Positions 5,955 through 58,910 of a stretch of DNA of 64,000 nucleotides are shown in pieces. The notes under the pieces were generated by a model. The model did no database searches. It saw only the letters and a program-made list of their open reading frames with translations, and was not told the origin of the DNA. The position numbers were made by a program, and so were the translations under genes. The DNA is from a virus. The first letter of the stretch is position 1. Each line of letters starts with the position of its first letter. The stretch lies in the IMG/VR virus record IMGVR_UViG_3300024999_000089, positions 6,926 through 70,925 of that record. One strand, written 5' to 3'.

Positions 5955-6740
5955 TTATACTACTCTGATTAATTCCCATTCTTTGGTTATCTCTGGATTT
6001 AATATGTGATCTGTTATAACCATATTACCTAAGTCAGTATAAATATGGATATTCTTGGTAGATATTTGTATATGCCTTTTATTGGTGGAATAGTAAATAT
6101 AATTTTTAACCATACTTGGATCATTAAGTCTATTATAGATTATTTGCTCTTCCTCAGTATGGCAGAATTCTGGGCCGTTTTTGAATAAATCTAAATAACG
6201 TATAGAATCGGATATTAAAGAGCAGTCAATATTAAATGCAGTTAAAAAATTGAACAATAGGGAATAATTTGTATCTTGATAATCTACACCATAACTAGCT
6301 GCATCAAAGTCTATTAGATACAATTTTCCCTGGTAATATAACCATTGTAAACAGTCTGAGTAATATATATTAAGTTGTTGGAGTGTATAGATCTGTTTAA
6401 GCATAAAGGGAATATTTTTGGTTATTATGGGTCTGACCTTGTTACGGTCTTTTTTGGGTATTGTGTCAATACTGATAACATGACCATGTGGCATTGTTAT
6501 ATATTGTTTATAGTCATGCATAATGGTATCAATTGGAAGTGAAGTCATTCCATGTAACATTTTTAGGAATAGGAATTCGTTGGAGGAAGGAATTGTTTCT
6601 TTGTGGAATAGGTTGGTTGTCGGGTCTGTGAAGGTGTTAAGATTGCCTTTCATTTGTTGTAAAGTCTCCTTTTTTGTTTGTTGTTCGTTGTTGGTGGTGC
6701 TATCTATTGAGTTGTTATAGTATTGACTGTTATAAACCAT
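5955..6740 (-). CDS. Protein-kinase-like fold protein (putative)
   Basis: LQQLNIYYSD...KLYLIDFD resembles the catalytic loop and DFG segment of kinase-like proteins. Confidence 0.45.
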   Translation of the reverse strand: MVYNSQYYNNSIDSTTNNEQQTKKETLQQMKGNLNTFTDPTTNLFHKETIPSSNEFLFLKMLHGMTSLPIDTIMHDYKQYITMPHGHVISIDTIPKKDRNKVRPIITKNIPFMLKQIYTLQQLNIYYSDCLQWLYYQGKLYLIDFDAASYGVDYQDTNYSLLFNFLTAFNIDCSLISDSIRYLDLFKNGPEFCHTEEEQIIYNRLNDPSMVKNYIYYSTNKRHIQISTKNIHIYTDLGNMVITDHILNPEITKEWELIRVV

Positions 6741-6901
6741 TTGTAAAATACCTTAATTTGTTATTTGTATAATGCTTACTATTATCTGTTATCTGTTATA
6801 AGGTATTTTACAAAAGGTTTGTTTATCCCTGCATCAACCAGCTTATTAGGCATACAATGCAGGTATAAAATATTATATTGCCTTTTTGTTTTTAATAACT
6901 A

Positions 6902-37082: not shown

Positions 37083-38183
37083 GTGACTATTATTGCTAGA
37101 CCTAAAAAAGCTACAACTAATATTGTACAAGTAAAAAAAGAAAAAATAATGTTTAAATGCTTATGTTGCGAAAAAGAAAAAGATCAAGAAAAAGAATATT
37201 ACAAATCAAATTCTTTTATTCTTAAAGGTAATAATAATCGTATGTTCATATGCCGTCAATGTGTTGTTGATTTATATACATATTTAGTAGGAAAGCATAA
37301 TGATTGTAAAATTGCATTATATTTTGCTTGTAGATTATTAGATGTATATTTTGAATCAAGTTTATATTATAGTGCAGAACAACAAGCAAATAATAGTAAT
37401 AGTAGTATATTTGCTATCTACCTGCAGAAATGTAACAGCCTCCCACAATATTCTTCAAAAACATTTTCAGAATCTTCCCCATTAGAATCTACTGAAAATA
37501 TAAATATATTTGAGACAGAAATTAAATTGGATACAAATGAGGAAGATAAAAGAAATAAAGAAGATGTAATTCGTATGGTTGGTTACGATCCATTTGAAAA
37601 TGATAATCAAATGGATAAGAAACATCTTTATAATACTTTAGTTGATTTTTTAGATGAATCAACACTAGAAGATTCATTTAAATTGCCTATAGTAATTGAA
37701 ATAGTTAAAAGTTTTAATCAAATAGATAAACTTAATCAAGCATTATCATTATTAACTGCTGATGTAAATAATATACAATCACAAACAGGTGGAGTAAAAT
37801 CGCTAATTGAAGCAAAGGAAAAAGTATATCGTTCAATACTTGCTATGGCAAAGGATAACGGTATTTCAGTTAATCATGCCAATAATAAATCTAAAGGTGC
37901 AGGTACTCTATCTGGAATTATTAAACAATTACAAGAAAAAGGATTTATGGAAGTTGAAGTAAATCTTTTTGATATAGAAACTTGTAAAGGGATGCAACAA
38001 GTAGCTGATATTAGTAATAATAGCATTTTAAAACAACTACAATTTGATGAAAATGATTATACTTTTATGATTAATGAACAACGTGATTTAATTCAAAATT
38101 TACAAAAGAAAAATACATATTTAGAAGAAGAAAATAGATTATTAAAAATAAAATTTAGAGAAGGTGACATAGTTAATGAATAA
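37083..38183 (+). CDS. Zinc-finger protein preceding terL; candidate small terminase subunit
   Basis: CLCC...CRQC; overlaps the terL start; position as in SPbeta-like phages. Confidence 0.6.
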   Translation: MTIIARPKKATTNIVQVKKEKIMFKCLCCEKEKDQEKEYYKSNSFILKGNNNRMFICRQCVVDLYTYLVGKHNDCKIALYFACRLLDVYFESSLYYSAEQQANNSNSSIFAIYLQKCNSLPQYSSKTFSESSPLESTENINIFETEIKLDTNEEDKRNKEDVIRMVGYDPFENDNQMDKKHLYNTLVDFLDESTLEDSFKLPIVIEIVKSFNQIDKLNQALSLLTADVNNIQSQTGGVKSLIEAKEKVYRSILAMAKDNGISVNHANNKSKGAGTLSGIIKQLQEKGFMEVEVNLFDIETCKGMQQVADISNNSILKQLQFDENDYTFMINEQRDLIQNLQKKNTYLEEENRLLKIKFREGDIVNE

Positions 38184-42650: not shown

Positions 42651-42660
42651 TAAATTTTTT

Positions 42661-42750
42661 GTGGCTAGGCAATGCAGACCGAAAAGGAGTTTCCCTACTC
42701 CCTGCCACTCATATAATTTTAGGGATTTTTATATGAAGGGAGATATAATA
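42661..42750 (+). ncRNA. Structured leader, copy A
   Basis: P1 GTGGC/GCCAC; P3 GGAGT/ACTCC with loop TTCCCT; AGGGA at 42721 and 42737. Confidence 0.65.
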
Positions 42751-44163
42751 ATGAGTAATAAACTTGATTTTAATGCAGTAAAAGATCGTATTTCAAAAAT
42801 AGGTTATGAATTAATTAGTAATAAATATGTAAAAATGAGAGCAGATTTGATAGTAAAAGATAAATATAATTATTATTATAAGGTAAGCTTAGAAGATTTA
42901 AGTGCTGGTGTAAAACCTAAATTTGTACATCCTGCAAATCCATATTCTATTTACAATATAAAATTATATTTAAAAAATAATAAAGATAATTTTATATTGT
43001 TATCTAATAAATATGAAAATGAAGATTCTAATTTAATTTTGTGTGACAATGAAGGATATTATTATTCTTTGACATGGAGAACACTTAAAAGGAGAAATAA
43101 ACATGTAATTGTTGGTGAAAATAATATATATTCAACAAAAAATATTGAATTATTTTTAAATAATAATTATCCGAATTTAAATTTACTAAATAAGTTTATA
43201 AATTATAAAGAAAAATTAATCTTTATAGATAATAACGGATATATTTATACAAGAACATGGAATGATCTAAAAAGATTAAATAATTTTCATATAGCAGATA
43301 AAAGTAATAAATATTCCATTCAAAACATTAAACTTTGGTGCAAACTTAATAATAAACCTTTTGAATTAATTAGTAATAAATATAATAATAATTTAGAATA
43401 TCTTAAATGGAAATGTTTAAAAGATGATTGTGAAGAGTATTTTAATTCATCTTGGAGTAATATTATGAGTGGTAATGGTTGCTCTTATTGTGCAGGTAAA
43501 AAAGTTGGTCTTTCTAATTGTTTAGCAACTAAATATCCTGAAATTGCATCTGAATGGCATCCTATACTCAATGGGAATTTAACTCCTTACGATGTAACAT
43601 ATGGTAGTGAAAAATATATTTATTGGAAATGTAAAGATTGTGGTCATGAATGGAAAGTAACACCAAATAATAGAACTGCTTCCGGCACTAGTTGTCCTGA
43701 ATGTAATAAATCTAAAGGCGAAAAAGAATGTAAAAGAGTTCTTATGTCTAAAGATTTAATGGAAATATTATATGAAGAATATGAAATATTATCAGATATA
43801 GAAAAGAACAATAATATATATTTTATTCCACAAATGAAATTTGATAGATTGCTAGGTTTGGGAGGTTGTTTACTATCCTATGATTTTTATATACCAAAAT
43901 TAAATTTAATTATAGAGTATGATGGCGAATATCACTATATGCCAATTAGAAAATATAAAAATAAACCAATGAAAGATGCAGAAGAAAGATTTATAAAGCA
44001 ATAAATACACGACCAACTAAAAAATGAATATTGTAAGAAACACAATATAAAACTTATCCGTATACCATATTGGGATTTTGATAATATAGAATCTATTCTT
44101 TCTAAAGAATTAAATATTAAATCAAATAAATTACAAAAAAGTATCATAATTTATAGGATGTGA
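42751..44163 (+). pseudogene. Zinc-ribbon PD-(D/E)xK (DUF559/Vsr-like) endonuclease with a premature TAA
   Basis: CSYC, EWHP...WKCKDCGHEW, CPEC, SKGE, YDFY...IEYDGEYH; after TAA 44002-44004 the frame continues IHDQLKNEYCKKHNIKLIRIPYW. Confidence 0.8.
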
Positions 44164-44168
44164 TAAAT

Positions 44169-44336
44169 ATTAAAACTATTTATTGTTACGATGAAGTATA
44201 TAAAGAGCAATTAATAAAAGAAGGTTTTAAATTAATGTCTTTCCAAATTATTGATAATAAACCTTGCTGGTTATTTGAAAATAATAAAAATATTAATTTT
44301 AGTAGAAAGACTAATATAAAACATATTTATTTTTAA
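44169..44336 (+). CDS. Small protein between portal and scaffold (ATT start, not in the ORF track)
   Basis: IKTIYCYDEVYKEQLIKEGFKL...WLFEN; AGGATGTGA upstream. Confidence 0.5.
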   Translation: MKTIYCYDEVYKEQLIKEGFKLMSFQIIDNKPCWLFENNKNINFSRKTNIKHIYF

Positions 44337-44359
44337 TTAATTAAAGGAGGTGAAATAAT

Positions 44360-46057
44360 TTGGAATATAAAATAAATACAAGTATACCAATTAATTTTGA
44401 AATGATTGAAGAAATACCAGATAGTAGATTTTTAAAAGTTAAGATATGGCTTTGCCATACAGGTGAAAATTTAAATGGCAGTTATTTTAGCAAAGAATTG
44501 CTTGAAACAATGAAAAATGAATCTTTATCCAATATACCAATTTTAGGTTATATATCTATTGATAATTTAAATGAATCAGATTTTTTAGGGCATGAAGAAA
44601 GAATTATAATACAAAATGGTGAAATAAAAATTGAATATGTTGGTAAAATTTATGGTTTAATACCAGAAACAAATAATGCTCAGTTTGAGTTTAAATTATG
44701 TGATGATGGTATAGAAAGAGAATTCTTAACTTGTGAAGGATTGCTTTATACTAGATTTCCAGAATGTATTGATATATTTAACAGAGATGAATCAAAAAGT
44801 CAATCAATGGAATTAGAACCTGATTCTATTTCTGGAAAATTTGAAATTGATAATTTATTCCATTTTGAAACAGCTAAATTTGAGGGAGCTTGTATTTTGG
44901 GTGATACTTTAACACCAGCAATGGTTAATTCAACAATTGAAAAATTTAGTATTAAAAATATTAAAATTCAATTGCAAGAAATGATAGTTGAACTCAATAA
45001 TACAGTTTTTAATAAAAATAATCAAGAAGGAGGTACAGAAATATTGGATGCAAAATTTGAACTAATAAAAAATTATGATAATTTAACTGAAGAAGATGTT
45101 TTAGATTTAAAAACAAATCATGAACAATATTCATTAGAAGAATTTGAAGCAAAATTAAAAGAACTATCAGAAGCGAAAAATATTCCACCAACTGATTTTG
45201 CTTTAACTGCTGAACAATTAAATGATGAAGTAAGAAAGGTTTTAAGAAATAGAAGGGTTATTTCAGAAGATTGGTGGGGTGATGAATACTCAGAAAACGA
45301 ATTCTACTATAGAGATATTAAAGATAATTTAGTTATAGTCATTGATAATTCTTGGGAAAATTATTATGGAATACCATATATGGTCGATGGAGATACAGTG
45401 ACAATTGATTTTGAAAATAAAATTGCATATATGTATGATTGGAGACCTAGAGTAGATGGTGAGGTTGTAGATAATTTTGCCAAACAGGAATTTGAGGAAA
45501 AATTAAAAGTATTTACTGATAAAGCAACTGAAAAAGTTAAATCTGAAGTTATTGCCGAATATGAAGTAAAAATTACTGAATTTAATTCCAAAATTGAAGA
45601 ATTAAATTCAGATTCACAAGATACCATTTTAGTTGAATTTGAAAATCTTAAATCTAAAGTAACAGAATATGAAAATAATATTTCTACTTTGACTGAACAA
45701 TTCAATTCTTTAAAAACAGAAAATGAAACACTTACTCAAACTAATACTTCCCTTCAAGAATTTAGAACAAATATTGAACAACAACAACAAGAAGCATTTG
45801 AAGCACAACAATTACAACTTAAAGCAGAATTAATTGAAAATTTCTCAAAAGTATTATCTATTGAGGAAATTAAATCAATAGAAGAGAAAAATTTATCTAT
45901 AGAAGATATGGATAAAGAATTTAAAATTATGTATGCTTCAAAAGAATTATCTGCAAAATTTGCAAAGAAAACTAAAAAAACTGATACAGAGATTCCAATT
46001 TTTAATTTTTCACTTAAGAAAAAAGAAGATTGGACTTCATTAATACCTAAGAAATAA
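44360..46057 (+). CDS. Prohead protease/scaffold protein
   Basis: CHTGENLNGS, SQSME and ACILG in the N-domain; acidic coiled-coil C-terminus; between portal and capsid. Confidence 0.75.
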   Translation: MEYKINTSIPINFEMIEEIPDSRFLKVKIWLCHTGENLNGSYFSKELLETMKNESLSNIPILGYISIDNLNESDFLGHEERIIIQNGEIKIEYVGKIYGLIPETNNAQFEFKLCDDGIEREFLTCEGLLYTRFPECIDIFNRDESKSQSMELEPDSISGKFEIDNLFHFETAKFEGACILGDTLTPAMVNSTIEKFSIKNIKIQLQEMIVELNNTVFNKNNQEGGTEILDAKFELIKNYDNLTEEDVLDLKTNHEQYSLEEFEAKLKELSEAKNIPPTDFALTAEQLNDEVRKVLRNRRVISEDWWGDEYSENEFYYRDIKDNLVIVIDNSWENYYGIPYMVDGDTVTIDFENKIAYMYDWRPRVDGEVVDNFAKQEFEEKLKVFTDKATEKVKSEVIAEYEVKITEFNSKIEELNSDSQDTILVEFENLKSKVTEYENNISTLTEQFNSLKTENETLTQTNTSLQEFRTNIEQQQQEAFEAQQLQLKAELIENFSKVLSIEEIKSIEEKNLSIEDMDKEFKIMYASKELSAKFAKKTKKTDTEIPIFNFSLKKKEDWTSLIPKK

Positions 46058-46094
46058 TAAAATAATAAAATTAAATTTAAGGAGGAATTGATTT

Positions 46095-46646
46095 ATGGCT
46101 AATGTAAACAATGTAGTAACTGGTAGATATGGTATTGTAAATCTTCGTAAAGTAGCAGGTGTAAAAACAGGTGAACATAATATTCAATATGCTTTAAATG
46201 CAACTGATTTTGCTGCTACTGCTTGTCAAAATGGTTTTCTTTTAGAAGAAGAGCATTATACAAAAACTCTTGGTTTACCTGGTGCTGCAACTACTAGGGT
46301 TGGTTTAGTTGCATGTGTAGAAAAAATGTATGATGAAAGTGATATGTCTTTAGGTAATTTTAGATTAAATTTAAATGAATTTTTACCTAGAATTTATCGT
46401 TTGCAAATAGGTGACATGTTTGATACCAATAACTTTAAGTATGATGATGGAGATTATGCTAATTATGCTGCTATTGTAACTGCTATCACTGCTGGTACTA
46501 CTGTATATGCATATCCTTCCACTAATGGTCAGATTGAATTAGAACCTATTCAAAATGCTAACGCAGCAATTGAATTACAAGCAACTAGAGTTGTAACTTT
46601 ACCTGCTGGTGAGGCTGGATTAATGTTTGTCTGCACAAAAAGTTAA
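46095..46646 (+). CDS. Head decoration/minor capsid protein (putative)
   Basis: Position before the capsid gene; strong RBS. Confidence 0.6.
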   Translation: MANVNNVVTGRYGIVNLRKVAGVKTGEHNIQYALNATDFAATACQNGFLLEEEHYTKTLGLPGAATTRVGLVACVEKMYDESDMSLGNFRLNLNEFLPRIYRLQIGDMFDTNNFKYDDGDYANYAAIVTAITAGTTVYAYPSTNGQIELEPIQNANAAIELQATRVVTLPAGEAGLMFVCTKS

Positions 46647-46696
46647 GTAGTAATAAATTATAAATATAATAATATTAAAGGAGGAATAATTATATT

Positions 46697-47698
46697 ATGG
46701 AAAGAAAATACTTCGAGTTATCAATGGCTACATATAATAGAAATGATTCAGTAGTTGATGGTGTTACATATACTTCTGCTGAAAAAAATGAAGCATTGAG
46801 AAATGCTTTTAAAGATTTAGTACCTGATGGTAAAAATAGATATAAGAGTTTCAGGAAAAACAAGAATGAGATTTTTGAATTAGTTGAAGAAAATGTTGAT
46901 GAAATTCTGCCAAAAAGAGTTGATGATGCTTATGGTGGTTTTGTTGAGTATCAGATTTTAGATCAAGGACAAAAACCTAAATTTAAGACTAAGAAAGGTA
47001 AAAGAGGTTTACTTAACTTTATTACCAAAGTTGGTTTGGGTGGTGTAATTGAAAGAACAAGATTAGATGTTGATTATATTAATATGACTATGGAAGCATA
47101 CGGCGGTGCAGTTTATGTCGAATTTGAGCGTTTTTTAGACGGCGTTGTGGACTGGACTGATTTAATTAATGCTATCGTAGATGGTATTATGGAAAAAATC
47201 AATCTTCAAATTCAAACTACTTTAATTGCTTCATTCACTGGTTTATCTGCTAATATGAAAGTACAAGCTAATTCTTTTGTTCCTAGTCAAATGGGACAAT
47301 TAATTACTAATGTACAATCTTATGGTGATAATGTAGTTATTTTCTGCACTCCTACTTTTGCAGGTACTATTGAAGAAACTCCTGGATTTGTGAGTGATAT
47401 GGATAGAACTGAACGCAGAGAATTTGGTAGAATTGGTAAATTTAGAGGTGCTAGTGTTATTGTATTACCTAACGCTTTTGCTGATGATACTAATAATAGT
47501 AAAGTATTAAGTGATCAATATGCTATTATTGTTGCAACAAATGAGAGTAAAATTGTTAAAGTGGCATTTGAGGGAGAGACAATTGTTAGGGAAACTGAAA
47601 ACGCAGATATGAGTATAGATTTCGAATCATATCGCAAATTTGGCTTAACCATTGTTTACTCCAATTACTATTGCATGTATAAAAATGTCTCGCTCTAA
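46697..47698 (+). CDS. Major capsid protein
   Basis: 333 aa, position, strong RBS, GRIGKFRGASVIVLPN segment typical of HK97-fold capsids. Confidence 0.8.
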   Translation: MERKYFELSMATYNRNDSVVDGVTYTSAEKNEALRNAFKDLVPDGKNRYKSFRKNKNEIFELVEENVDEILPKRVDDAYGGFVEYQILDQGQKPKFKTKKGKRGLLNFITKVGLGGVIERTRLDVDYINMTMEAYGGAVYVEFERFLDGVVDWTDLINAIVDGIMEKINLQIQTTLIASFTGLSANMKVQANSFVPSQMGQLITNVQSYGDNVVIFCTPTFAGTIEETPGFVSDMDRTERREFGRIGKFRGASVIVLPNAFADDTNNSKVLSDQYAIIVATNESKIVKVAFEGETIVRETENADMSIDFESYRKFGLTIVYSNYYCMYKNVSL

Positions 47699-47708
47699 GG
47701 ATTATTTT

Positions 47709-47823
47709 AAAATAAAAATAGGACAAATAGCGCAATTTGTCTGATAAGAGGGTATCCTTTCTACCCTCTTTTTTATTTTTTAAAATTTGAAAGGTTAATT
47801 GCAATCATAGAAAGGGTGATAAA
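47709..47823 (+). ncRNA. Structured leader, copy B
   Basis: P2 GACAAAT/ATTTGTC, TGATAA junction, P3 GAGGGTA/TACCCTC with loop TCCTTTC; GAAAGG at 47789 and 47810. Confidence 0.7.
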
Positions 47824-48759
47824 TTGTAACAAATTAATTCGCAGATTATTACAAATAATATAAATTATTCAGGTATTTATTTAATTATCAATCTACAAAA
47901 TAATAAATTTTATGTTGGTAGTGCGAAAAAACTATATGGAAGAAAGATGGAACATTTGTATTTATTGCGTAAAAATAAACATGCAAATACATATCTTCAA
48001 AATTCATATAATAAAAATGGTGAAGAAAATTTTACATTTGTAGTAATTGAAATAATTGAAGATGAAAATAAATTAACAGAAAGAGAACAATATTGGATAG
48101 ACACATTAGATGCTACAAATAAAGAAATAGCTTATAATATTTGTCCAACTGCTAATAGTATGTTAGGTTATAAACATTCTGAAGATACTATAAATAAGTT
48201 AAAAAAATATAAAGGTGAATTATCTCCTTTTTATGGTAAAAACCATACTGATGAAGCAAAAAATAAAATATCTATAAAAAATAGCAATCCATCTGATGAA
48301 ACAAGAGAAAAACATCGTCAAGTAGCACTGAATCAATCACCAGAAACAAGACAAAAAATTGCCGAATCTAAATATAAATCAGTTATTCAATTAACTCTTG
48401 AAGGTGAATTTGTAAAAAAATGGATTAGTATTAAAGAAATATGTAATACATTATGGTTTGATCAACCACATATTTCTACATGTTGTGCTAATAAAAATAA
48501 TGTAAAACAACACAAAGGATTTATATGGATATGGGAAAATAATTATAAAGATTTTGATATTAATAATTATAAAAGACCATATAAAAATAACAAAGGTAAA
48601 ATTACTTTACAATATGATTTAGATGGCAATTTTATTAAAGAATGGTTAAATGCCAAAACAGCATCTAGGGAATTAGGATTGGAATACATATCAATAACTG
48701 AATGTTGCACAGGTAAAATTAAAAAATCTCAAGGTTTCATTTGGAAATATGTATCATAA
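47824..48759 (+). pseudogene. GIY-YIG endonuclease with NUMOD-type C-terminal modules; codon 2 is TAA
   Basis: SGIY...FYVGS...R lies in frame upstream of the annotated ATG 47947; the RBS-linked TTG at 47824 is followed directly by TAA. Confidence 0.75.
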
Positions 48760-48814
48760 CAAAAACATAAAACAACAAAATAAAATATTAAAATAAAAGG
48801 AATGATTTATTCTT

Positions 48815-49336
48815 ATGGCAAAAACAACTCAATCAAAAAATCAATCAAACGAATTTAACACAATTGATCCAGATAGGAAGGTTAGAATCATAAACAATTC
48901 TAATTCTAAAATCTATTGGACTCAATTAAATGGTAGACCTATTAATTTAATGAAAATTGCTGCTCCTGCTTCATTGCCTTATGTAGAATTGGAAAATATG
49001 GCTTATACTAGTGATTTAATTCAAACAGGAGATATTTATGTCCCTGATAAAGATGTATTCGATGCTTTAGGAATTATAAGTTTAAAACATGAAGATATAA
49101 AACTACATTCTGAATTAAAACGTATGTTAGCAAATTTAGAAGCAGAAGAATTGAAAGAAGAAATTTCTAAACTTCCAGATGGTAATAAGGAATTATTAGC
49201 TGAATTAGCAATTGTTGATTATGATAATTTAAGAGGATCTGTTGTTAATACCATTGAGAATGAAACAAAAGTAAAAATTTCTCTTATAAAAGAAGATGAA
49301 AAAGCAAATAAACAAAATCAAGAAAAGAATAAATAA
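48815..49336 (+). CDS. Virion morphogenesis protein
   Basis: Late-operon position. Confidence 0.6.
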   Translation: MAKTTQSKNQSNEFNTIDPDRKVRIINNSNSKIYWTQLNGRPINLMKIAAPASLPYVELENMAYTSDLIQTGDIYVPDKDVFDALGIISLKHEDIKLHSELKRMLANLEAEELKEEISKLPDGNKELLAELAIVDYDNLRGSVVNTIENETKVKISLIKEDEKANKQNQEKNK

Positions 49337-49363
49337 AATAAATAATGAAAGTAGTTTGATACT

Positions 49364-49801
49364 ATGACTATTTCTTATGATTTAATTTTTCAGAAGTTTA
49401 TGCATGAAATTAATGATTTTGATTTAACGTCTTTAAATGAAGAACAAATGTTAATAGAAAATAAATTAACTCTATCTAAAGCAGTGTCTTTATTTAAAAA
49501 ATGTAAGCAATCATTAATTAGAGATGATGAAGATGAAGAATTCATAAATGACTTAACAGAAGAAGAACAATGGATATTAGCAGATTATATGAGAAAAGTT
49601 TGGTTAGATGAAAAAATAAATAATGGTGAATTATTAAAATTGAGATTAACAGATAAAGATTTTAAAACTTTTAGTCCTGCTGATTTATTAGGAACTATGA
49701 GTAAATTAAAATCAATTTATGATAAAGAATTAAAATTAAAAGTTAATGATTATCTATATGATGGTTATTTATACTCTAAGTTTTATAAATCAGGTGGTTA
49801 G
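49364..49801 (+). CDS. Head-tail adaptor (putative)
   Basis: Size, helical character and position. Confidence 0.55.
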   Translation: MTISYDLIFQKFMHEINDFDLTSLNEEQMLIENKLTLSKAVSLFKKCKQSLIRDDEDEEFINDLTEEEQWILADYMRKVWLDEKINNGELLKLRLTDKDFKTFSPADLLGTMSKLKSIYDKELKLKVNDYLYDGYLYSKFYKSGG

Positions 49802-49833
49802 GAGTGATTATATTTTAGAAGGGAGATTATATT

Positions 49834-50463
49834 ATGACAGAATTTAATTTTAAAACAGTTAGTGAAAATTCAATAACAAGTGATATTGTACAAGGAACAA
49901 TTAAATCAAAGATTAAATTGTTACCATTAGCTTCTGCTGCTATTTCAGGTGTTGATTTCCATAAGTTATTTGCAATTGGTGATGTAACAGGAACAACAGC
50001 TTATGGATTTGGTGATCCAACAAAACCGACTACAGGTATTATGGGCAGTTTTGGTAGAACAGCTATTGCAACAGGAACTCCAACTGATACAGGTTTAGAT
50101 ATTAGAGTTATAAATAAACTTGTAAATACAGGAGCGAATACAATTCAAGGTGCCTATATTAAGGCAAAAAATTATACTGGTGGAACAGTAGGTATAGTTA
50201 AAGGTTTATTTGTAGAAGTGGTTAATGATGGAACTGCAACAACTGTATTAGGTATTGAAATAGGTTCTGATGGTACTGCACCTACAGCAGATGTTAAATT
50301 TAGCAATGGTGCATATTTAGTTGCTTTATCAACTGCAATTACAGTAAATGTAACTACTACAACTGCTCCTGCTGGGTCTCTTGGATTTACAACTAACGCA
50401 ACAGGTTTAGGGAAATTGTTTATGTCTGATGGTTCAAAATGGCAATACGCAGTAGTAGCATAA
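49834..50463 (+). CDS. Gly/Thr-rich virion protein (possible head fibre)
   Basis: C-terminal APAGSLGF...LFMSDGSKW fibre-like motif. Confidence 0.5.
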   Translation: MTEFNFKTVSENSITSDIVQGTIKSKIKLLPLASAAISGVDFHKLFAIGDVTGTTAYGFGDPTKPTTGIMGSFGRTAIATGTPTDTGLDIRVINKLVNTGANTIQGAYIKAKNYTGGTVGIVKGLFVEVVNDGTATTVLGIEIGSDGTAPTADVKFSNGAYLVALSTAITVNVTTTTAPAGSLGFTTNATGLGKLFMSDGSKWQYAVVA

Positions 50464-50488
50464 TATAATTTTGGAGGATTAAAGTTTA

Positions 50489-50653
50489 ATGACAATTGAA
50501 ACTTTAAATGAACGTATACAATTGCTACTTGCTCAAAAACAAGATGCAACTGATAGGATTAATCAAGCAATGTCAGATTTAAACGCAATTAATGGTGCAA
50601 TTCAAGAAGTTAATTTTTGGACTGATTATATAAATAAATTAAAGGAGGAATAA
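50489..50653 (+). CDS. Small coiled-coil protein (54 aa, not in the ORF track)
   Basis: GGAGG RBS; MTIETLNERIQLL...NAINGAIQEV. Confidence 0.65.
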   Translation: MTIETLNERIQLLLAQKQDATDRINQAMSDLNAINGAIQEVNFWTDYINKLKEE

Positions 50654-50658
50654 TTATT

Positions 50659-50937
50659 ATGGCAAACGTAACTGGGTATGTAAGCAAGGAACTGACTGCA
50701 AACATTTTAGAACAAAATGTTACTCTTAATGTGAATGAATTTTATCTTATTAACAATATTTCTGCAAACATAGTTACAATTAATTTAGACAATACCTGTA
50801 CAGAAGATGGAGCAATTAAGTTAGCTGCTGGTCAAAGTATTGAAAATTTTAAAGAGTATTGTAAAGTATTATATTACAAAGCAGCAGCAGATGCATCAAC
50901 ATTACAAATTATCGCAAAGAGAGAAAAATCTTATTAA
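50659..50937 (+). CDS. Small beta-rich virion protein
   Basis: AAAGGAGG RBS; followed by a terminator at about 50944-50968. Confidence 0.65.
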   Translation: MANVTGYVSKELTANILEQNVTLNVNEFYLINNISANIVTINLDNTCTEDGAIKLAAGQSIENFKEYCKVLYYKAAADASTLQIIAKREKSY

Positions 50938-51008
50938 TTTAAAAGGGAGTGAAACATCTCCCTTTTTATAACTTGTAGAGTTTTAAAATTTAAGGAGTTG
51001 ATATTTTA

Positions 51009-52181
51009 TTGACTTGGTGGAATGATTATCAAGCAAGACGAGGTTTAGATAGAAAAACTTTATATGTTAACAATATGAAAAATACAATATCAACTGAATT
51101 TAAAAATTCTACAAGTTATAATTTAGTTAAAATTAATAATGTTGATAGAGATGTTCGTATTGTTGAAGAAAATTCAATTATAAAAAATCCAAATAAAAAG
51201 AGATTATTATGCTATCCAGATGAAACTATAAGTGTTGGGAATATTATTTTATGGAATAGTGAAAATTGGATATGTACTGAAACAGATAATACTTCAGAAG
51301 TTTCAGATGTTGGATTAATTAGTAGGTGTAATAATGTATTAAAGTTTTATGATAAAACCCAAAACAACATCCTATACAATATCCCTTGTATAATCGTTGA
51401 TAAAATTACTACAGATTTACAAGAAAATAAATTTTTACTAACAATTGATTGTGACATACTAGTTATAATTGCAAACAATGATATTAACAATTTAATCTCT
51501 CCTAATGAAATTTTCAAAATTGGTAGATATAGTTATTACATCACAAAACCAGACGATGTAACCAAACCAGGATTGATCATACTACCAATGAAATTTACTG
51601 AAGAAATGCAGGAAGAGCATTTATATACTTTAGAGATTTTGAATGGAAATTCTGTAGATGTTCAAATTTCTACTGAATTACAATTAAATATTAATGTGTA
51701 CGATAATGGAACACTTATCTCCCCTCTTCCATCTTTAATACTTACAAACAGTGATGAAACAATATGTAATGTTGATGAAAATGGTTTAATAACTACTAAT
51801 GATATTGTTGATAATTGTAATATTACTGTTAGTTTAGAGAGTGATAATAGTGTTTTTGATATTATTAATATAAATGTAATTGAAAATGTTCAGAATAACA
51901 TAACTTACAGTTTAACTTCGGAAAGTTTACCTGACAATGAGATTATTTTAACGCAAACTAAAGTTTATGAAGTTAATAAATATAATAATGGAAATTTAGT
52001 TGAACAAACATTTACATTTAGTATAATTGGTGATTTAAGTGCTTATCAATTAGTTGTTTTAGATGGTAATAGTTGTAGTGTTAAAGCATTGAAAAGTGGT
52101 AGTGTTATTATTTTGAAAGCAATTGATGATAGTAATGGTGAAATTGTTTTGAAGGATATTAGATTGAAGAATTTATTCTAG
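51009..52181 (+). CDS. Head-closure/neck protein with C-terminal Ig-like domains (putative)
   Basis: Position; SDETICNVDENGLIT resembles the Big_2 motif. Confidence 0.6.
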   Translation: MTWWNDYQARRGLDRKTLYVNNMKNTISTEFKNSTSYNLVKINNVDRDVRIVEENSIIKNPNKKRLLCYPDETISVGNIILWNSENWICTETDNTSEVSDVGLISRCNNVLKFYDKTQNNILYNIPCIIVDKITTDLQENKFLLTIDCDILVIIANNDINNLISPNEIFKIGRYSYYITKPDDVTKPGLIILPMKFTEEMQEEHLYTLEILNGNSVDVQISTELQLNINVYDNGTLISPLPSLILTNSDETICNVDENGLITTNDIVDNCNITVSLESDNSVFDIININVIENVQNNITYSLTSESLPDNEIILTQTKVYEVNKYNNGNLVEQTFTFSIIGDLSAYQLVVLDGNSCSVKALKSGSVIILKAIDDSNGEIVLKDIRLKNLF

Positions 52182-52192
52182 GAAGTGTTAAA

Positions 52193-52717
52193 ATGTCAAA
52201 TATAATTAATCTTGATAAAATAGGAAATATATTATCAAGTATTGGAAATAAACTTATAGAAAATAAAACTTTAATGCGTTGTATTGCGTATAACACACCT
52301 AATGCATTATCATCTTCCCTACCAGATGTTACTATTGAAGAAATTATAAAACTTACAGGGAAAGGTATTAATCCTTCAAATAAACAAAAGATTTATAAAT
52401 GTCCTTTTAATAATAATATAATAGATGAAATTAGATCAGAAATTCGTTTTTTTATTCCTAAATTAAAACCAGAAAATCTTTATATTTCTAAAATTAATAT
52501 AGGTTTTGAGGTTATTACTTATAATACTTTGGTAGATTTAGAAGATAATAAACTTAGGTATTTAGTAATGATTCAAGAAATTTTAAATTCTTTAAATGGA
52601 TATGATTGTGGAGGAATTGGTTTGCTATATCTTACAGAAAATTCATCTATTAATATTGTTAATTATAATCATAAATTTTCTGGATATACTTTCTTTTTGT
52701 CTACTAGGGTAACATAA
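52193..52717 (+). CDS. Tail completion/terminator-like protein (putative)
   Basis: Position and size. Confidence 0.5.
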   Translation: MSNIINLDKIGNILSSIGNKLIENKTLMRCIAYNTPNALSSSLPDVTIEEIIKLTGKGINPSNKQKIYKCPFNNNIIDEIRSEIRFFIPKLKPENLYISKINIGFEVITYNTLVDLEDNKLRYLVMIQEILNSLNGYDCGGIGLLYLTENSSINIVNYNHKFSGYTFFLSTRVT

Positions 52718-52756
52718 TAAGGTAAATTTTATAGATTTATAATACAACATGGTTAG

Positions 52757-53680
52757 GTGATTTATATGGATATGAAACAATATGAAAAATATTTAGTTTA
52801 CAATGAACCAATACCTTATTTACCTTTAAGTATAGTAAAAAAATATGAAGATATAAAGTCTGAAGTATTAACATTATCTAATAAAATACATTTGTCTAAA
52901 GAAGAATCTGAACATTTGAATATTTTACAAGAAGAAATTAATAATCCATTGCATTTATTAATTCATCCTGTAAAAATGAATAATTATTTAGATTTCCATA
53001 TGGCAATACATTGTCTAACAATAAATAAAAATCAAATTCCTGATCCAAAAGTGATTTCAATGTCATATTTGGATTTTTTATTTTATACTTTTGACAAAGA
53101 TGAAAATGGACAATTTTATTTAATAATGTTACTTGAAATATTTAAATTATGTTTAAATATAGAATATAAACAAATTGAATATATTCAAGATGAAAAAGGT
53201 AAAATAAATTTTATTTTTAATTTAGATTGTGACGAAGAAAATAAAAAGGTAAAAATAGATAAAACAGATTTTGATAATATTAAAAATATAATATTATATC
53301 AAAATATACCTGACTATGATGATGCCTATATTGATCCTAAAATGGAAAAAGCATTAAAAGAAGCACAAGAATTTATGAATAAAAATAAAAAGAAAATGGC
53401 TTCTTTAGAAGACCAAATTATATGTGTCATGCTTGCTTTAAATGAAACAGATGAATCAAAAATACACAATCTTACTATTAGAAAGTTTGCTAAAATTCTA
53501 CAAAGGTATGATTATAAATTGCATTATGAAATATATAAACAAGCAGAATGTTCAGGTATGGTTACTTTTAAACAAGAAATTGATCATTGGATGAGTGATT
53601 TATCAGTTAAAGATAAATATGCTGATGTTAAGGTTGATTTTGAAGAATTTAAAAATAAAGTTAATGGTAAGAAATCTTAA
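52757..53680 (+). CDS. Tail-region protein
   Basis: ORF in the late operon before the tail tube gene. Confidence 0.6.
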   Translation: MIYMDMKQYEKYLVYNEPIPYLPLSIVKKYEDIKSEVLTLSNKIHLSKEESEHLNILQEEINNPLHLLIHPVKMNNYLDFHMAIHCLTINKNQIPDPKVISMSYLDFLFYTFDKDENGQFYLIMLLEIFKLCLNIEYKQIEYIQDEKGKINFIFNLDCDEENKKVKIDKTDFDNIKNIILYQNIPDYDDAYIDPKMEKALKEAQEFMNKNKKKMASLEDQIICVMLALNETDESKIHNLTIRKFAKILQRYDYKLHYEIYKQAECSGMVTFKQEIDHWMSDLSVKDKYADVKVDFEEFKNKVNGKKS

Positions 53681-53701
53681 TATAAAAGGAGGCAATATTT
53701 A

Positions 53702-54760
53702 ATGTCTAAAAAATTTTTAGTTGGTGTTGGTGCAGTTTCGGCTTTTAATATTTCGACAGGTGATCTCTTATTTCGCAGCCGTACAGTATTGGATGATTCA
53801 ATAGAAATTACAACTGGAAGTGAAGAAATTAGTGGTGGTACTGGTAATGCCCTACAATACATATATTACCATTCAGGTAGATTAAATGCAAAATTAACAG
53901 AAATACAATTCTCTTTAAATATGATTGCCCAAAACGTAGGTTCTTCTATTTTAACTGGAAAAAATATATGGGTGGAAGAAAATGTAACTTTAGGTGCAGG
54001 TGGTGTAGGTACTGTAGTTGGTACGCCTATTTTAACTCCAGACGTTAGTGGATCTGATGTTTTTGGTTATGTTACAAATGCTTCTGGTATTACAACTAAA
54101 GTTACTTTTAGCACAAAAGAATTTACACTTGTAGGTGGTGCGGAAGATGATATTGTATGTGTACAATATTTTGCTACTGATTCTGCTGCAAGATATATTA
54201 CTGTAAACTCTAATTTCTTACCTTCTGTTGTTAGATTAGTAATTGATACACAACTTGCTAGTTCAGATGAATCGTCTGCTGCTGGTTCTAGTATTATTGG
54301 TAAGGTACAGATGGAAATTCCTAGATTCCAAATTGCAGGTAGTCAATCAATATCTATGACATCTTCAGGTGTTGCACAAACTCCATTAGAAGGTATGGCT
54401 TTAAGTTATGCTGGAACTGGTGGATGTAATGGTTCTGGACATTATGCTACAATTACCGAAGTTATTGATGCAAATAACTGGTATGATAATGTTGCATTTT
54501 TAGCTGTAGCAGATGATACTATTGCACTTACACATCCTACTACTTCTACTTTACAAGTTTGGGCAGTTCCAAATAATGGAGATGCAGCTTTTAAAGCACC
54601 TGTTGCAGACCTTAGTTTTACCTCTGGAACTGTTGGTACTTGCACTGTTGGATTACATACTGGAATTATAACTACAGTAGCAGGTGGAACTTCTGTAATT
54701 ACATGTGTGATTACAGCGAAAAATACTGTAGGGACAACTGCAACATGTACTGTAAGTTAA
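53702..54760 (+). CDS. Major tail tube protein with a C-terminal Ig-like domain
   Basis: EEISGGTGN motif, G/T/V-rich, ends GTTATCTVS; strong RBS. Confidence 0.75.
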   Translation: MSKKFLVGVGAVSAFNISTGDLLFRSRTVLDDSIEITTGSEEISGGTGNALQYIYYHSGRLNAKLTEIQFSLNMIAQNVGSSILTGKNIWVEENVTLGAGGVGTVVGTPILTPDVSGSDVFGYVTNASGITTKVTFSTKEFTLVGGAEDDIVCVQYFATDSAARYITVNSNFLPSVVRLVIDTQLASSDESSAAGSSIIGKVQMEIPRFQIAGSQSISMTSSGVAQTPLEGMALSYAGTGGCNGSGHYATITEVIDANNWYDNVAFLAVADDTIALTHPTTSTLQVWAVPNNGDAAFKAPVADLSFTSGTVGTCTVGLHTGIITTVAGGTSVITCVITAKNTVGTTATCTVS

Positions 54761-54778
54761 ATAGATTATTAATATAAT

Positions 54779-54890
54779 AATGGTTAATATTTAAGGTTGC
54801 AAACTTAAATATTGTAATTAATAGACATATGCCTATACATATGTCTATTCCCATTTGTATCTCTTATATAGGAAGGAGAATGATTAAATA
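54779..54890 (+). ncRNA. Structured leader, copy D
   Basis: P1 AATGG/CCATT, 10-bp P2, 12-bp P3 with loop CCTATA; TATAGG at 54867 abuts the AAGGAG RBS. Confidence 0.65.
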
Positions 54891-55880
54891 ATGGGATTGA
54901 TAACTAAAGAAGTTGAAGTATCAATAACAAATAATACTCAAAAATATTATAAAGATTTAAACTATGATATAGATTCTTTAAAGGTAAAAAATAAATATTA
55001 TAAATATACAATGCCAAAAGGAACTACTATTATTGTTAAAATTGAAGATTTACCAAAAGGAAGTAACGTGTATGTTACCATAGAATGTGATTATTGTGGA
55101 AAGATATATGAAAAACAATATTATGATTATAATAAAAATTTAGATAATTCTTATATTAAAAAATGTTCTTGTGATAAATGTAAGATGATCAAAACTCAAG
55201 ATACTATGATTTTATTATATGGTAAAAGTAGTCCATTACAAGTAGATGAAATAAAAGAAAGGCAACAATCTACTAATGTTTTAAAATATGGTGGTAAATC
55301 ACCTGCAAATAGTATTATTACTCTTAATAAAATGAAAATTACTAATTTTGATAAATTTGGTGTATTTAATGCTATGCAAAATCCTGAAATAAGTAAAAAA
55401 TCTAGAATTAATGCTAATATTTCTTTATCAAAAAATCATAATGTTAATACTTCAAATCAACAAATATATTTACATAATTTATTAGGTGGAGAATTGAATT
55501 TCCCAGTTAAGCAATATATAGGAGATATTTTAATTAATAATAATATTATGATAGAATACGATGGTGGAGGACATGATTTACAAGTTAAATTAAATAAAAT
55601 AACAGAAAAAGAATTTTTATTAAAAGAAATAAAAAAATATTATGTTTATAAAAATAATGGTTATGTTTTATTTAGAATAAAATCATTAAAAGATTTTCTT
55701 CCATCAGATGATAAAATAATAGAAATTATTAAATATGGAAAAGAAATAATTAATTCTGGACGTTCTTGGATTGAATTTAATATTGATGAATCAAAAGTAA
55801 AATGTTCAAAATTTGAAGAATACTATGATTTTGGTGAGTTGAGAAAAATAAAATTAAAAGATATAAATATATCATCATGA
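54891..55880 (+). CDS. Zinc-ribbon PD-(D/E)xK free-standing endonuclease, apparently intact
   Basis: CDYC...CDKC, K(Y/F)G repeats, SNQQ, DILINNNIMIEYDGGGH. Confidence 0.75.
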   Translation: MGLITKEVEVSITNNTQKYYKDLNYDIDSLKVKNKYYKYTMPKGTTIIVKIEDLPKGSNVYVTIECDYCGKIYEKQYYDYNKNLDNSYIKKCSCDKCKMIKTQDTMILLYGKSSPLQVDEIKERQQSTNVLKYGGKSPANSIITLNKMKITNFDKFGVFNAMQNPEISKKSRINANISLSKNHNVNTSNQQIYLHNLLGGELNFPVKQYIGDILINNNIMIEYDGGGHDLQVKLNKITEKEFLLKEIKKYYVYKNNGYVLFRIKSLKDFLPSDDKIIEIIKYGKEIINSGRSWIEFNIDESKVKCSKFEEYYDFGELRKIKLKDINISS

Positions 55881-56299
55881 TAAATAAAATTAACTTATGT
55901 GAGAATGGGATACATTTAACTGATGGTGTATCCCATTCTCTAAAATGTAAAATAATTAATGACAATTGTACATTTATTAGATGGTGTATAAATGACAATT
56001 GTATAAAAATGACTCCTCTAGCTAATAAATGTAAACTTCGAGGTGAAATAATGAAAGAAAAAGAAATTGTAGAAGTTAAAGAAGAAATAGATTTTAAAAA
56101 GAATATCAAAAATAGTATTAAAGAAGAAATTTGTAAAGTTTGTTTTATTAAAGGTAATAAACTTGTATTAGATTTTAAAGGATATGGTATAGAAATTATT
56201 TTGGATGATAATTTTGATAAATCTAAGATAAAAAACAATATTAATGTTAAATATAAATCTGATATTGGTAAACCTGATTTTGAAATTGTTTCATATTAA
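55877..56299 (+). CDS. Hypothetical protein with a Cys-rich N-terminus
   Basis: ORF overlapping the upstream stop. Confidence 0.6.
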   Translation: MINKINLCENGIHLTDGVSHSLKCKIINDNCTFIRWCINDNCIKMTPLANKCKLRGEIMKEKEIVEVKEEIDFKKNIKNSIKEEICKVCFIKGNKLVLDFKGYGIEIILDDNFDKSKIKNNINVKYKSDIGKPDFEIVSY

Positions 56300-56311
56300 A
56301 AAAAATAAACC

Positions 56312-56340
56312 TTGACAGATTGTAAATATAATTGTATAAT
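56312..56340 (+). promoter_or_regulatory. Consensus sigmaA promoter with the ATTGTAAATATAAT motif in its spacer
   Basis: TTGACA-N17-TATAAT; predicted +1 coincides with the 5' arm of leader copy C. Confidence 0.85.
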
Positions 56341-56343
56341 ACG

Positions 56344-56436
56344 AATAGGGATAGATAGGAGTCATGATCCTATTGATAAGAGCCTCACCTCTTCCCTATT
56401 TATAATTTTTGTGAGGGAAAAAGTGAGGTAATAAAT
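56344..56436 (+). ncRNA. Structured leader, copy C
   Basis: P1 AATAGGGA/TCCCTATT, P2 ATAGGA/TCCTAT, TGATAA junction, P3 GAG/CTC with loop CCTCAC; GTGAGG at 56411 and 56423. Confidence 0.75.
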
Positions 56437-58910
56437 ATGTTAATAACTAAAGAATTATATGTAAAATGGAATCCAACGACTAGAAAATACTATGAAGATT
56501 TAGGACATGTATATACTAAACATAACAATGAATTTTTAATCCCTATAGAACATTTACATCATGGTTCAAACACAGACATAGAATTTCAATGTGACGAATG
56601 TGGTGAAATTGAAACTAGAATATATCGAGATTATGTTTTATTAAAAACTAAATATAATAAAGATATATGTGGTATATGTCTTAATAAGTTAAATATGAAA
56701 AATAGAAGTTTAAAAGCAAAAACAAAAGAAGATTTTGGATATTATGCTAATCATGAAAATAGAAAATATGAATTAGATAAATATTTAAAAAAGTATAATG
56801 AATTATCAAATATGATTAATAATACAGAAGGAAAAAGATTGTATGATAACTTTCATAGTCATAAAGATGATATTTATGATACTGCAATAGAATTAGGTTA
56901 TAAAATAGAAGATATTTGTAAATCATTGCCTAAAATTATTATATCAAATATCCTGAAATATTAAAAGAAAAAATATTAATATTCATAGAAGAAAATAAAA
57001 GATTTCCTAAAAGTAAAGAAATAGAAAAGATATTAAATGTAAGTAATAAGTTTATTAGTAACTTTGGTGGTATTAATGAATTTAAAAAATTATTAGGATA
57101 TGATGATAGTAAAGATTTAATAGATCTTCGTGGAGATTATAACAAATCTTTAGGAGAGTTGATTTGTGCAAATTATTTTTGTTCCCAAGGATTAAATGAC
57201 AAATATAAAAGAGAACAATATCCATTCAACAAAGAAAATAGATATTTTAGGTCTGATTTTACTTTTTACTTAGAAAATAATAAAGAATTACATATTGAAG
57301 TATGGGGATTTAAAAAGTCAGAAATTAGTTCTGAAAGAGCAAAAGAATATCATAAAGTAAGAAGTATAAAAGAAAATTTATACCAAAAATATTCAAATGA
57401 TATTATATTAATTGGTATTGATTATGAGATATTTGACTTAAAATATGATGAAATACAAAAATATTTATATAGTTTAATTTCACCATACATTAATTTAAAA
57501 TTTAAAGATGTATCATACAAAAAGTTACTATCTCCATCCCTTATTAGTGATGATGAAATATTTAATGGTATTATGGAAATTAGTTCTGATGGAAAAACAT
57601 TCCCTACAACAATTGAATTATGTTCATATAATTCTTGTTTATATAGTCAAATATTAAAACGTGGTTACAGTTATAATGAATTTGCTAATAAATATAGTGT
57701 TAAAACAAAATTAGATAAAAAAGAATGGACTAAGAAATTAGTATTTGGACATTTTAGTAATATTTTAAACGAAGGAAAAGTTATTAATAAAAAATCATTA
57801 AATGAAGAATATAGTGGTTTATCTGAAGCAACAGAAAAATTTGGATACATGACAAAATTAAAATTAGAATATTTTATAAAATTAAATGAAATACCTAATC
57901 AGGAATTAGATTGGGTGATTAATTTAGCAAATAATACAACAAAAACAACATCAAATTTTTCTAAAACAGAAGTAAATAATGCAAAAAAGTTATTAGATAA
58001 ATTATATATTAATGTAGAAAATAATATTTGTTGTAAAACTTGTGGTAAGGAATTTACTCAATATCATATTTATGAATTGCATTGTCAAGAATGTATTTCA
58101 AATTCTAACGGGAAATCAAAATATGCAAAACCATTATATACTGAAACTGAATACAATAATAATTTTATTATTAAAGCAATAAAACCATATTTATTAACTA
58201 GTAAAGGATTTAATAGTGTATCTGATATTAAAATACAATCTTATAGAAATTATTTTAATATGAAATGGATAGATATTATAAAGAAATATAATAGATTTGA
58301 TGATTTATATGGTTATATTATTGATGAATTTAAAAATTATTGCAAGATAGATACTAAAAATAAAGACATACATAGGTTTGCAAATAATCATGATTATATA
58401 ACTTATGATATTCTTACTGGAATAGGATTAGATAAAATTTATAGAGATATGGGAATAGTTAAACAAAGGTATACAGAAGAAGATTATAAAATTAATTTCT
58501 TAAATATAGTTGAAAATCTTGGGTATATACCAATGTACAAAGAATTTATTGATAATACTAAAATAAATATTGTTTCTTATTCTAATAAATTTAACATACA
58601 TAAAAATATATATGATGAGATTGTTAAAATGTATTCTTCTGAAAGTGATTATGAAGATTATATGAAACGTAAAAAAGAACATAAATCAAATATTGGTAAA
58701 GAAACTGGTAAATTAAGTTTAATTTATAGTGATAATGATTTAAAAAGTAATTTTATTAATACAAATGATACATATTTTAAAGAACATAATAAATATCCAT
58801 CAAGGAGAGAATTTGATAAGTTAAATAAACCAGATAGTAGTGTTTATAGGAAAAGATATAAAAAATCATGGAGTGAAATTTGTGAAATGTATGGTTATTG
58901 TAGTAGTTAA
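56437..58910 (+). pseudogene. Large multidomain endonuclease split by a frameshift near 56930
   Basis: N-terminus similar to the 54891 protein; a -1 shift at CCTAAAATTATT joins it to an open frame running into 57159 (..DYNKSLGELICANYF..SDFTF..IEVWG). Confidence 0.75.

Follow-up and report, generated by a model that had tools for sequence, protein, structure and literature searches.

What do structured RNA leaders do in front of phage homing endonuclease genes? The question is raised by a 64,000-nucleotide (nt) stretch of viral DNA, hereafter the window (bases 6926-70925 of the 70,925-nt, about 49% complete IMG/VR virus record IMGVR_UViG_3300024999_000089), in which structured leaders lie directly 5' of four nuclease genes starting at 42751, 47824, 54891 and 56437 on the + strand. 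Homing endonucleases need to be made in small, well-timed amounts, and little is known of their control outside T4. We call the leaders at 42661, 47709, 54779 and 56343 L1, L2, L3 and L4, and compare them with four sister records (G001, G002, G003 and G004), the first of which holds a further copy, L5. Our analysis suggests that the leaders are probably cis-acting translational control elements of the nuclease gene behind them, working as a portable throttle or switch, and that they most likely set the amount of nuclease made. The initial annotation of the window had noticed these leaders; its observation is partly confirmed, being real and mostly as described. No close relative of the window's virus was found among deposited phages, and the DNA runs containing the window stretch are groundwater and soil metagenomes.

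Three of the four leaders share a three-way junction

L1 (42661-42708), L2 and L4 have the common layout P1-UA-P2-GAWAA-P3-(C)U-P1' (Table 1). P2 begins with G, the strand that follows is GAAAA or GAUAA, and P3 begins with G, carries a loop with CCU and is followed by pyrimidines and P1', with 0-2 nt between P3 and P1'. One and the same leader had been claimed for all four genes; structured leaders are indeed present at all four, and the layout is found in the copies at 42661, 47709 and 56343, the copy at 54779 forming a separate class. A strict descriptor of the layout gave 10 matches in the window's record and the four sister records (168,858 nt, both strands) and none in any of 30 dinucleotide shuffles. 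In 479,266 nt of other loci, it matched nothing outside leaders.

Pairing is kept through sequence change, as the initial annotation held for stems that differ completely in sequence: among sister copies an A-U pair in P2 of L4 becomes G-C, a C.A mismatch in P2 of L1 becomes U-A, and a G-C pair in P3 of L1 becomes G.U. P2 of L1 is weak, as had been remarked, with two pairs and the C.A mismatch, and its sister copies have GGU/ACC. The G.U pairs together with the fixed orientation fit an RNA of the + strand. The junction strands are 2, 5 and 2 nt long, lengths that, by the classification of three-way junctions, presumably fit a fold with P3 laid back along P1; such a fold would bring the P3 loop close to the start of the 3' tail.

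Single copies gave unremarkable minimum-energy folds (z 0.04 to -1.9), L3 excepted (z -3.99), and P3 of L2 with its U run has a terminator-like score. Alignments of the four window copies by MAFFT did not agree with the structure and were dropped; the covariance model suggested at the outset for the four copies was built from L2 alone (model R1). Its best non-self match in the window is L4 (29.1 bits, E 8.5e-4), L1 and L3 giving no match at E<=10 in the window, so that only L4 and its orthologs were detected. Over 83 loci (475,680 nt), R1 found nothing besides L4 and its orthologs at E<=1, and among 79 GIY-YIG loci from other phages the leader was seen only in the ortholog (L010). Self-cleaving ribozymes (hammerhead, twister, pistol) were rejected on their consensus cores, and no such Rfam match appeared; Rfam riboswitch families likewise gave no match in the window and leader searches.

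One copy had been described as starting at the predicted +1 of a consensus promoter, and a perfect sigma-70-type promoter does end 3 nt before L4; it is kept in the four sister copies. The promoter region at 56321-56340 contains ATTGTAAATATAAT.

The P3 loop matches two sites in the tail behind it

The loop of P3 differs between copies and matches its own downstream sequence. TTCCCT in L1 complements AGGGA at 42721 (site 1, 42721-25) and 42737, TCCTTTC in L2 complements GAAAGG at 47789 and 47810, and CCTCAC in L4 complements GTGAGG at 56411 and 56423, the second site (site 2) being the Shine-Dalgarno (SD) sequence in all three. The four loop/complement pairs listed initially (TCCCT/AGGGA, CCTTTC/GAAAGG, CCTATA/TATAGG and CCTCAC/GTGAGG) were located as written. 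That the complement occurs twice, with the SD as its second copy, holds for the leaders at 42661, 47709 and 56343, the letters C and D having been swapped between sentences of the initial annotation; two alternative loop partners are likewise seen in these three copies, and the fourth has a different scaffold with a single site. Both L1 sites are kept in sister copies, and both GTGAGG words of L4 are kept in four sisters even though the intervening spacer varies. Other loops in the sister phages are ATTCCGA with TCGGAA and CGGAGG, TCCTTTC on a different P3 stem with GAAAGGA twice, TCCT with AGGA twice, and AATCCTA with GGATT, where the SD match is only AGG.

In a permutation test, loops were shuffled among tails and scored by the summed length of the two best Watson-Crick runs. 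For 28 instances, the own-tail score was 279 against 231.8 +/- 7.9 after permutation (0/5000 reaching the observed value), and for 15 non-redundant instances it was 145 against 111.1 +/- 5.8 (0/5000); with only the five phage leaders, the observed value was reached in 2 of 120 permutations. The proposed covariation of loop and tail is thus borne out. Moreover, the two sites are nearly equal partners for the loop: mean predicted duplex energies over 30 instances are -7.10 kcal/mol for site 1 and -6.90 kcal/mol for site 2, and the stronger partner is site 1 in 11, site 2 in 14 and neither in 5.

Site 2 tends to sit in the loop of a small hairpin, as in TTATAT-GAAGGGAG-ATATAA (L1), ATCA-TAGAAAGGG-TGAT (L2) and GCGCT-TGAAGG-AGCGC (a bacterial copy). 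Of 29 tails folded alone, 14 left the GG of the SD largely open (0.8 unpaired or more) and 5 kept it largely closed (0.2 unpaired or less). (The bacterial copy L121, which has no sites, is in the permutation set and left out of the SD-hairpin and tail-fold counts.) An in-frame ATG lies at 42733, after site 1 of L1. A conserved upstream mini open reading frame (ORF) after site 1 was considered and rejected, being present in L4 and the L2 of the window and lost in the L2 ortholog.

A decoy and the Shine-Dalgarno sequence as alternative partners

From these patterns we infer that the pairings form in the RNA and bear on translation as follows. The three-way junction would hold P3 beside the closing stem P1 and so present its loop, an anti-SD-like sequence, to the tail. 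With the loop on a decoy (site 1, 9-18 nt past the junction) the true SD would be free, presumably the ON state; with the loop on the SD (site 2, usually in the small-hairpin loop just before the start codon), 30S binding would be blocked. The two pairings would be mutually exclusive and about equally strong, which implies that the leader either fixes a low translation rate or toggles with a trigger. L3 would do the same job on another scaffold, its loop pairing over six bases at the 5' edge of the SD. Standing at the front of a mobile cassette, the leader would move with the nuclease ORF and bring its own expression control wherever it is inserted.

Several observations weigh against this reading. 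CCU is common to all loops and AGG to all SDs, which makes the match generic in part, and the sites were chosen by complementarity, which inflates the paired percentages. Matching sites are missing from three copies, namely the bacterial L121, L230:13134 (loop ATCCGA) and L224:8399, which is decayed. A hairpin of at least 4 base pairs displaying the SD is present in 25 of 29 instances, a weak excess over 200 flank shuffles (mean 19.0, maximum 25). In the class to which L3 belongs there is a single site, which lies beside rather than on the SD in three of four loop types. In G002, G003 and G004, a plain terminator hairpin stands before the same GIY-YIG gene at the L2 site, so the leader is not obligatory. 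Finally, the run look-up returned no RNA run containing the window stretch.

Some of the same evidence could be read as a constitutive structural element, in which the junction and a site-1 pseudoknot form a stable 5' cap or insulator and site 1 resembles an SD without any switching role. Such an element would terminate or shield the message upstream, hold off nucleases or run-on ribosomes and make the messenger RNA of the cassette more stable. The leaders do start 8-25 nt past the upstream stop codon, P3 of L2 with its U run is homologous to the plain terminator of G003 and G004, the Rfam consensus of the related family introduced below has a U run after P1, and the fraction of tails with an open SD GG means that the tails can be explained without repression. 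We nevertheless consider a cap or insulator unlikely, since it leaves unexplained the covariation of loop and SD region outside AGG (GTGAGG, GAAAGG and TGAAGG, each present twice) and the retention of both sites despite drifting spacers.

Leaders are the 5' ends of mobile nuclease cassettes

Comparison with the sister phages shows leaders and genes present or absent together. Sister homology ends at window position 42658, 3 nt before P1 of L1, and G001 and G004 are without L1 and its gene at that site. In G001, L5 and a broken nuclease gene are inserted exactly between the positions equivalent to window 50636 and 50639, and window 54763-55894, with L3 and its gene, corresponds to 22 nt in G003 and G004. 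The cassette borders lie 3-40 nt before P1, and the leaders thus form the 5' ends of cassettes that are present or absent as a whole; L4, with its gene, is retained by each of the four sisters. At window 55895-55945, where the L3 cassette ends on its 3' side and homology to G003 and G004 resumes, there is a long inverted repeat, GAGAATGGGATACA ... TGTATCCCATTCTC. Logan DNA contigs from four groundwater and soil runs were too fragmented for cassette-free joints and gave small variants only.

The hairpin of G003 and G004 at the L2 site has the P3 stem of L2 with the loop GAACAAA, and neither P2 nor the GAAAGG words; it is a natural control for the link between loop and sites.

All 13 distinct leaders examined precede genes of homing-endonuclease families (at least three), leader classes and nuclease families being mixed; this tally leaves out L230:13134, L224:8399 and a copy at the end of G001. 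Typing with PHROGs and Pfam upholds the claim of a leader common to unrelated nuclease families.

The junction is of the int-alpA type and recurs in bacteria

The initial annotation did not recognise a named RNA family and had set an Rfam comparison beforehand as its test of novelty. That comparison found int-alpA (RF02996), and the motif itself is therefore already catalogued and not new. L1 scores 35.1 bits over the whole model, 0.7 below the gathering score of 35.8, with E 3.8e-4, or 1.3e-5 when the search covers the 519 nt holding the four leaders; in the Rfam scan of the window, nothing attains the gathering score of any family. Its orthologs score 43.2 (G002), 44.6 (L221) and 35.0 bits (L220), and L5 scores 48.4. 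L2, L3 and L4 gave no match to RF02996 at E<=10 in the same 519 nt. The junction strands of L1 are exactly those of int-alpA, UA, GAAAA and CU, and the likeness extends to the CCU-containing P3 loop and to the AGGG about 10 nt past P1' (model positions 68-71), which in L1 aligns at 42721-24. The junctions of L2 and L4 (UA, GAUAA and a single U) are a variant that the Rfam model misses, and those of L3 differ. We file L1 as a borderline int-alpA member with passing orthologs, L2 and L4 as putative GAUAA variants of the same architecture, and L3, by its different scaffold, as something else. The integrase and alpA gene context implied by the family name differs from that of the phage copies, which stand before homing-endonuclease genes and not after an integrase gene.

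In bacteria, we scanned one genome per species with a pattern from the Rfam consensus. Among 80 of the 120 matching stretches, the strict descriptor found the full junction in 24, mostly in Burkholderiales and other Proteobacteria; the other 56 failed it and were dropped, and may be chance hits or looser copies. With L101 left out for its short tail, loop/site pairing is general in the 23 remaining copies, which have the same two-site tail as the phage leaders: a short pyrimidine-rich linker, site 1, and then site 2 (the SD) 5-9 nt before the start codon. Examples are CCTTCA with TGAAGG twice, TTCCCTG with CAGGG and GAGGGGG, CCGTG with CACGG and ACGGAAGG (an ACGG match), and ACTTCA with TGAAGT and GAAGGGG. 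Covariation in the bacterial copies is strong for P1 and P2 (0/500 shuffles), and P3, being fixed by the search pattern, is uninformative on covariation. A tyrosine integrase gene lies upstream on the same strand in all three bacterial loci examined. Ten ORFs of 154-400 amino acids (aa) after bacterial copies in loci among L100-L179 had no Pfam, NCBIfam or PADLOC match (10/10), and we regard the ORFs behind these copies as putative cargo, of no known family, of integrative elements. The E. coli Sakai chromosome has no RF02996 match.

Rfam types RF02996 as 'Gene; sRNA', which would fit a trans-acting small RNA (sRNA) whose P3 loop is a seed for the SD regions of other messages, and in the bacterial copies a GC-rich P1 with its U run could end a short transcript. 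We judge this very improbable, because each loop matches its own downstream tail and not other tails, the motif always stands on the coding strand directly before an ORF, and loops vary between copies within one phage.

The same loop logic is found on other scaffolds

L3 has neither UAG nor GAWAA, its junction strands being UU(A) and GUAAUUAA, and we refer to its scaffold as class C. Its P2 loop, GTTGCAA, is conserved, and a pattern made from this loop found 11 IMG/VR loci, 10 of them real copies and one a chance match. The complement of the L3 loop CCTATA (TATAGG) occurs once only, at 54867. Four loop types occur in class C, CCTATA/TATAGG, CTGATA/TGTCAG (with one G.U), CCGTTA/TAACGG and CTGTAA/TTACAG, and each loop matches six bases at the 5' edge of the SD. 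When six distinct copies were aligned, the paired share of cells was 95.7%, compared with 81.4% in shuffles (0/500); the pseudoknot helix has six pairs, with 100% of cells paired and four of the six pairs changed on both sides, in an alignment cut at a site that was itself picked by complementarity. In addition, the SD of several class C copies is followed directly by a mini-ORF, the stop codon of which overlaps the main start (TAATG). In L3 it reads ATG ATT AAA TAA, from the ATG at 54880 to the TAA at 54889-91, overlapping the main ATG at 54891 (window 54880-54893), and L222 is similar. The overlap suggests termination-reinitiation as a possible mode of translation.

A further scaffold, class B, was recognised by eye only before two GIY-YIG genes, at about 820-940 in G001 and 2853-2975 in G004. 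Its parts are a long stem, a hairpin inside it and a single strand of 9 nt, which is TCTCCTGTG with CACAGGAGA and CAGGAGG in one case, and CTCTACACA with TGTGTAGAG and TGTGTGGAGG in the other; the strand complements the decoy perfectly and the SD with one wobble or a shorter match. As far as base complementarity tells, the same decoy/SD logic would then be built on at least three scaffolds.

These scaffolds also bear on a riboswitch or protein operator, in which a ligand or a host or phage protein at the junction bases UA, GAAAA and CU would pick the decoy or the SD. The junction bases are kept from Betaproteobacteria to AT-rich phages with all stems differing, the two loop partners are nearly isoenergetic, as for a poised switch, and the downstream proteins are unrelated, so that the products are unlikely regulators. 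Even so, no candidate ligand or protein is at hand, and the loop logic is shared by GAUAA/single-U variants and by the junction-less scaffolds B and C, which points to the junction as a scaffold rather than a sensor; we think a signal-responsive junction quite unlikely. A broader version, to which we give rather little credence, would make int-alpA-type leaders and scaffolds B and C widespread portable bistable translational switches of selfish genes, with a junction that senses a cellular or infection-state signal and an anti-SD loop moved between decoy and SD. In phages, the genes that own them would be homing endonucleases; in integrative elements, they would be the cargo genes that follow integrases. 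If true, the leaders would make up a new class akin to riboswitches, and an orphan Rfam family would gain its first function.

Relation to known leader systems

The T4-type homing endonucleases I-TevI, I-TevII, I-TevIII, segB and Aeh1 mobE are described as having a stable hairpin that contains the ribosome-binding site and is bypassed by a late promoter (PMC2988022). Like these hairpins, the leaders described here would be RNA structures that limit translation of a phage homing endonuclease on polycistronic messages, and the UAAUG overlap of stop and start in T4-type genes is also seen in L3 (PMC2988022). In contrast to the single hairpins of the T4 type, the leaders would use a distant junction loop and an equal-strength decoy, move with the cassette and are common to unrelated nuclease families. 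Moreover, the SD is mostly unpaired in tail-only folds of the 29 instances, and not enclosed in a stable local hairpin stem as in the T4 type. TATAAT-like words are present in AT-rich linkers.

The operator of E. coli rpsO (S15) is reported to alternate between a pseudoknot and a double hairpin (PMC3985624). It resembles the proposed mechanism in that translation is governed by a choice between two folds around the SD, of which one is a pseudoknot. In contrast, rpsO is autoregulated by its own product, whereas the products behind the leaders are mutually unrelated, and there is no likeness in sequence or fold.

The int-alpA motif is said to come from a survey of 224 candidates by Weinberg and colleagues in 2017. 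The word 'alpA' is absent from the main text of that survey (PMC5737381). Among the papers found to name 'int-alpA', none is on function, and searches of the nuclease-leader literature returned no description of the element (the supplement of the survey lies outside these searches). A cis role or decoy/SD pairing for int-alpA is not stated in the portions of text that the literature search returned. The decoy/SD cis-regulatory logic, its link to mobile nuclease cassettes and the extra scaffolds thus appear not to be in print, as far as the literature was readable.

Our reading of the leaders as translational control elements would assign a testable cis-regulatory mechanism to a catalogued RNA family without an assigned function, in the form of an RNA that travels with a nuclease ORF as one mobile unit, and it would link phage nuclease cassettes with cargo genes of no known family behind integrases in bacteria. 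If confirmed, this would make the leader a compact, portable throttle on translation, of use both in marking mobile cassettes and in designing synthetic control elements.

Downstream nuclease genes and neighbouring features

Table 1. Leaders, tails, promoter and downstream genes in the window.
Feature	Position	Strand	Parts	Basis or match
L1, int-alpA type	42658..42724	+	P1 42661-65/42704-08; UA 42666-67; P2 42668-80; GAAAA 42681-85; P3 42686-42701 (loop TTCCCT 42691-96); CU 42702-03	RF02996 score, descriptor match
L1 putative expression platform	42730..42753	+	hairpin TTATAT/ATATAA; site 2 (SD) GAAGGGAG 42735-42 in loop; ATG 42751
Nuclease gene 1, 417 aa	42751..44004	+		phrog_559 'HNH endonuclease' E 2.9e-41; Pfam DUF4379 zinc ribbon
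L2, GAUAA variant	47709..47779	+	P1 47709-18/47770-79; UA 47719-20; P2 47721-42; GAUAA 47743-47; P3 47748-68 (loop TCCTTTC 47755-61)	descriptor
L2 tail	47789..47829	+	site 1 GAAAGG 47789-94; site 2 (SD) GAAAGG 47810-15 in ATCA/TGAT loop
GIY-YIG/NUMOD nuclease gene	47824..48759	+	stop at codon 2	Pfam GIY-YIG E 3.4e-13; phrog_314
L3, class C	54779..54855	+	P1 54779-83/54851-55; P2 54786-54813 (loop GTTGCAAA); GUAAUUAA 54814-21; P3 54822-47 (loop CCTATA 54832-37)	fold z -3.99
L3 tail	54867..54893	+	site TATAGG 54867-72 overlaps SD AGGAAGGAG
Nuclease gene 3, 329 aa	54891..55880	+		phrog_12131 'homing endonuclease' E 5e-33
Sigma-70-type consensus promoter	56312..56340	+	TTGACA-17-TATAAT	12/12 match
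L4, GAUAA variant	56343..56401	+	P1 56343-51/56393-56401; UA 56352-53; P2 56354-74; GAUAA 56375-79; P3 56380-91 (loop CCTCAC 56383-88)	model R1 match
L4 tail	56411..56439	+	site 1 GTGAGG 56411-16; site 2 (SD) GTGAGG 56423-28; ATG 56437
175-aa ORF	56437..56964	+		phrog_12131 positions 1-117 of 313, E 1.5e-13 (N-terminal part only)

The products of the four genes carry PHROGs labels of homing or HNH endonucleases (the initial annotation had typed them as GIY-YIG and PD-(D/E)xK). Searching PDB sequences gave nothing for the 54891 product and only matches to the DUF4379 zinc ribbon for the 42751 product, and protein searches of viral contigs found no relative of the former and two of the latter.

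The TTG start at 47824 is followed by TAA at 47827, where the G001 ortholog has TTG GAA, and the TTG-TAA at 47824-47829 would reflect either a decaying nuclease gene or an assembly error. G002 has one 823-aa ORF where the window has the 175-aa ORF and a 583-aa ORF (57159-58910), so that 56437-58910 reads as a single gene apparently split by a frameshift near 56950; some public contigs have an extra A after 56931. Past the stop of the 42751 gene, the sequence still looks coding but in a different frame (window 44004-44150, with a ...KLIRIPYWD... type tail), and a contig variant has an extra T after 44056; the gene may thus be disrupted towards its 3' end.

Screening 167 ORFs for complements of SD words upstream of them gave a noisy set of 16 matches, some of which arose by chance. 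A long-range complement of 13 nt, GTAAAATACCTTA ... TAAGGTATTTTAC, lies at window 6741-6815 on the - strand before a 261-aa gene starting at 6740. If paired, it would bury the SD of that gene in a simple occluding stem, unlike the leaders.

Finally, residues 267-345 of a 943-aa ORF at 38176-41007 match a LAGLIDADG/Hom_end domain, and the arrangement resembles an intein within a large phage protein.

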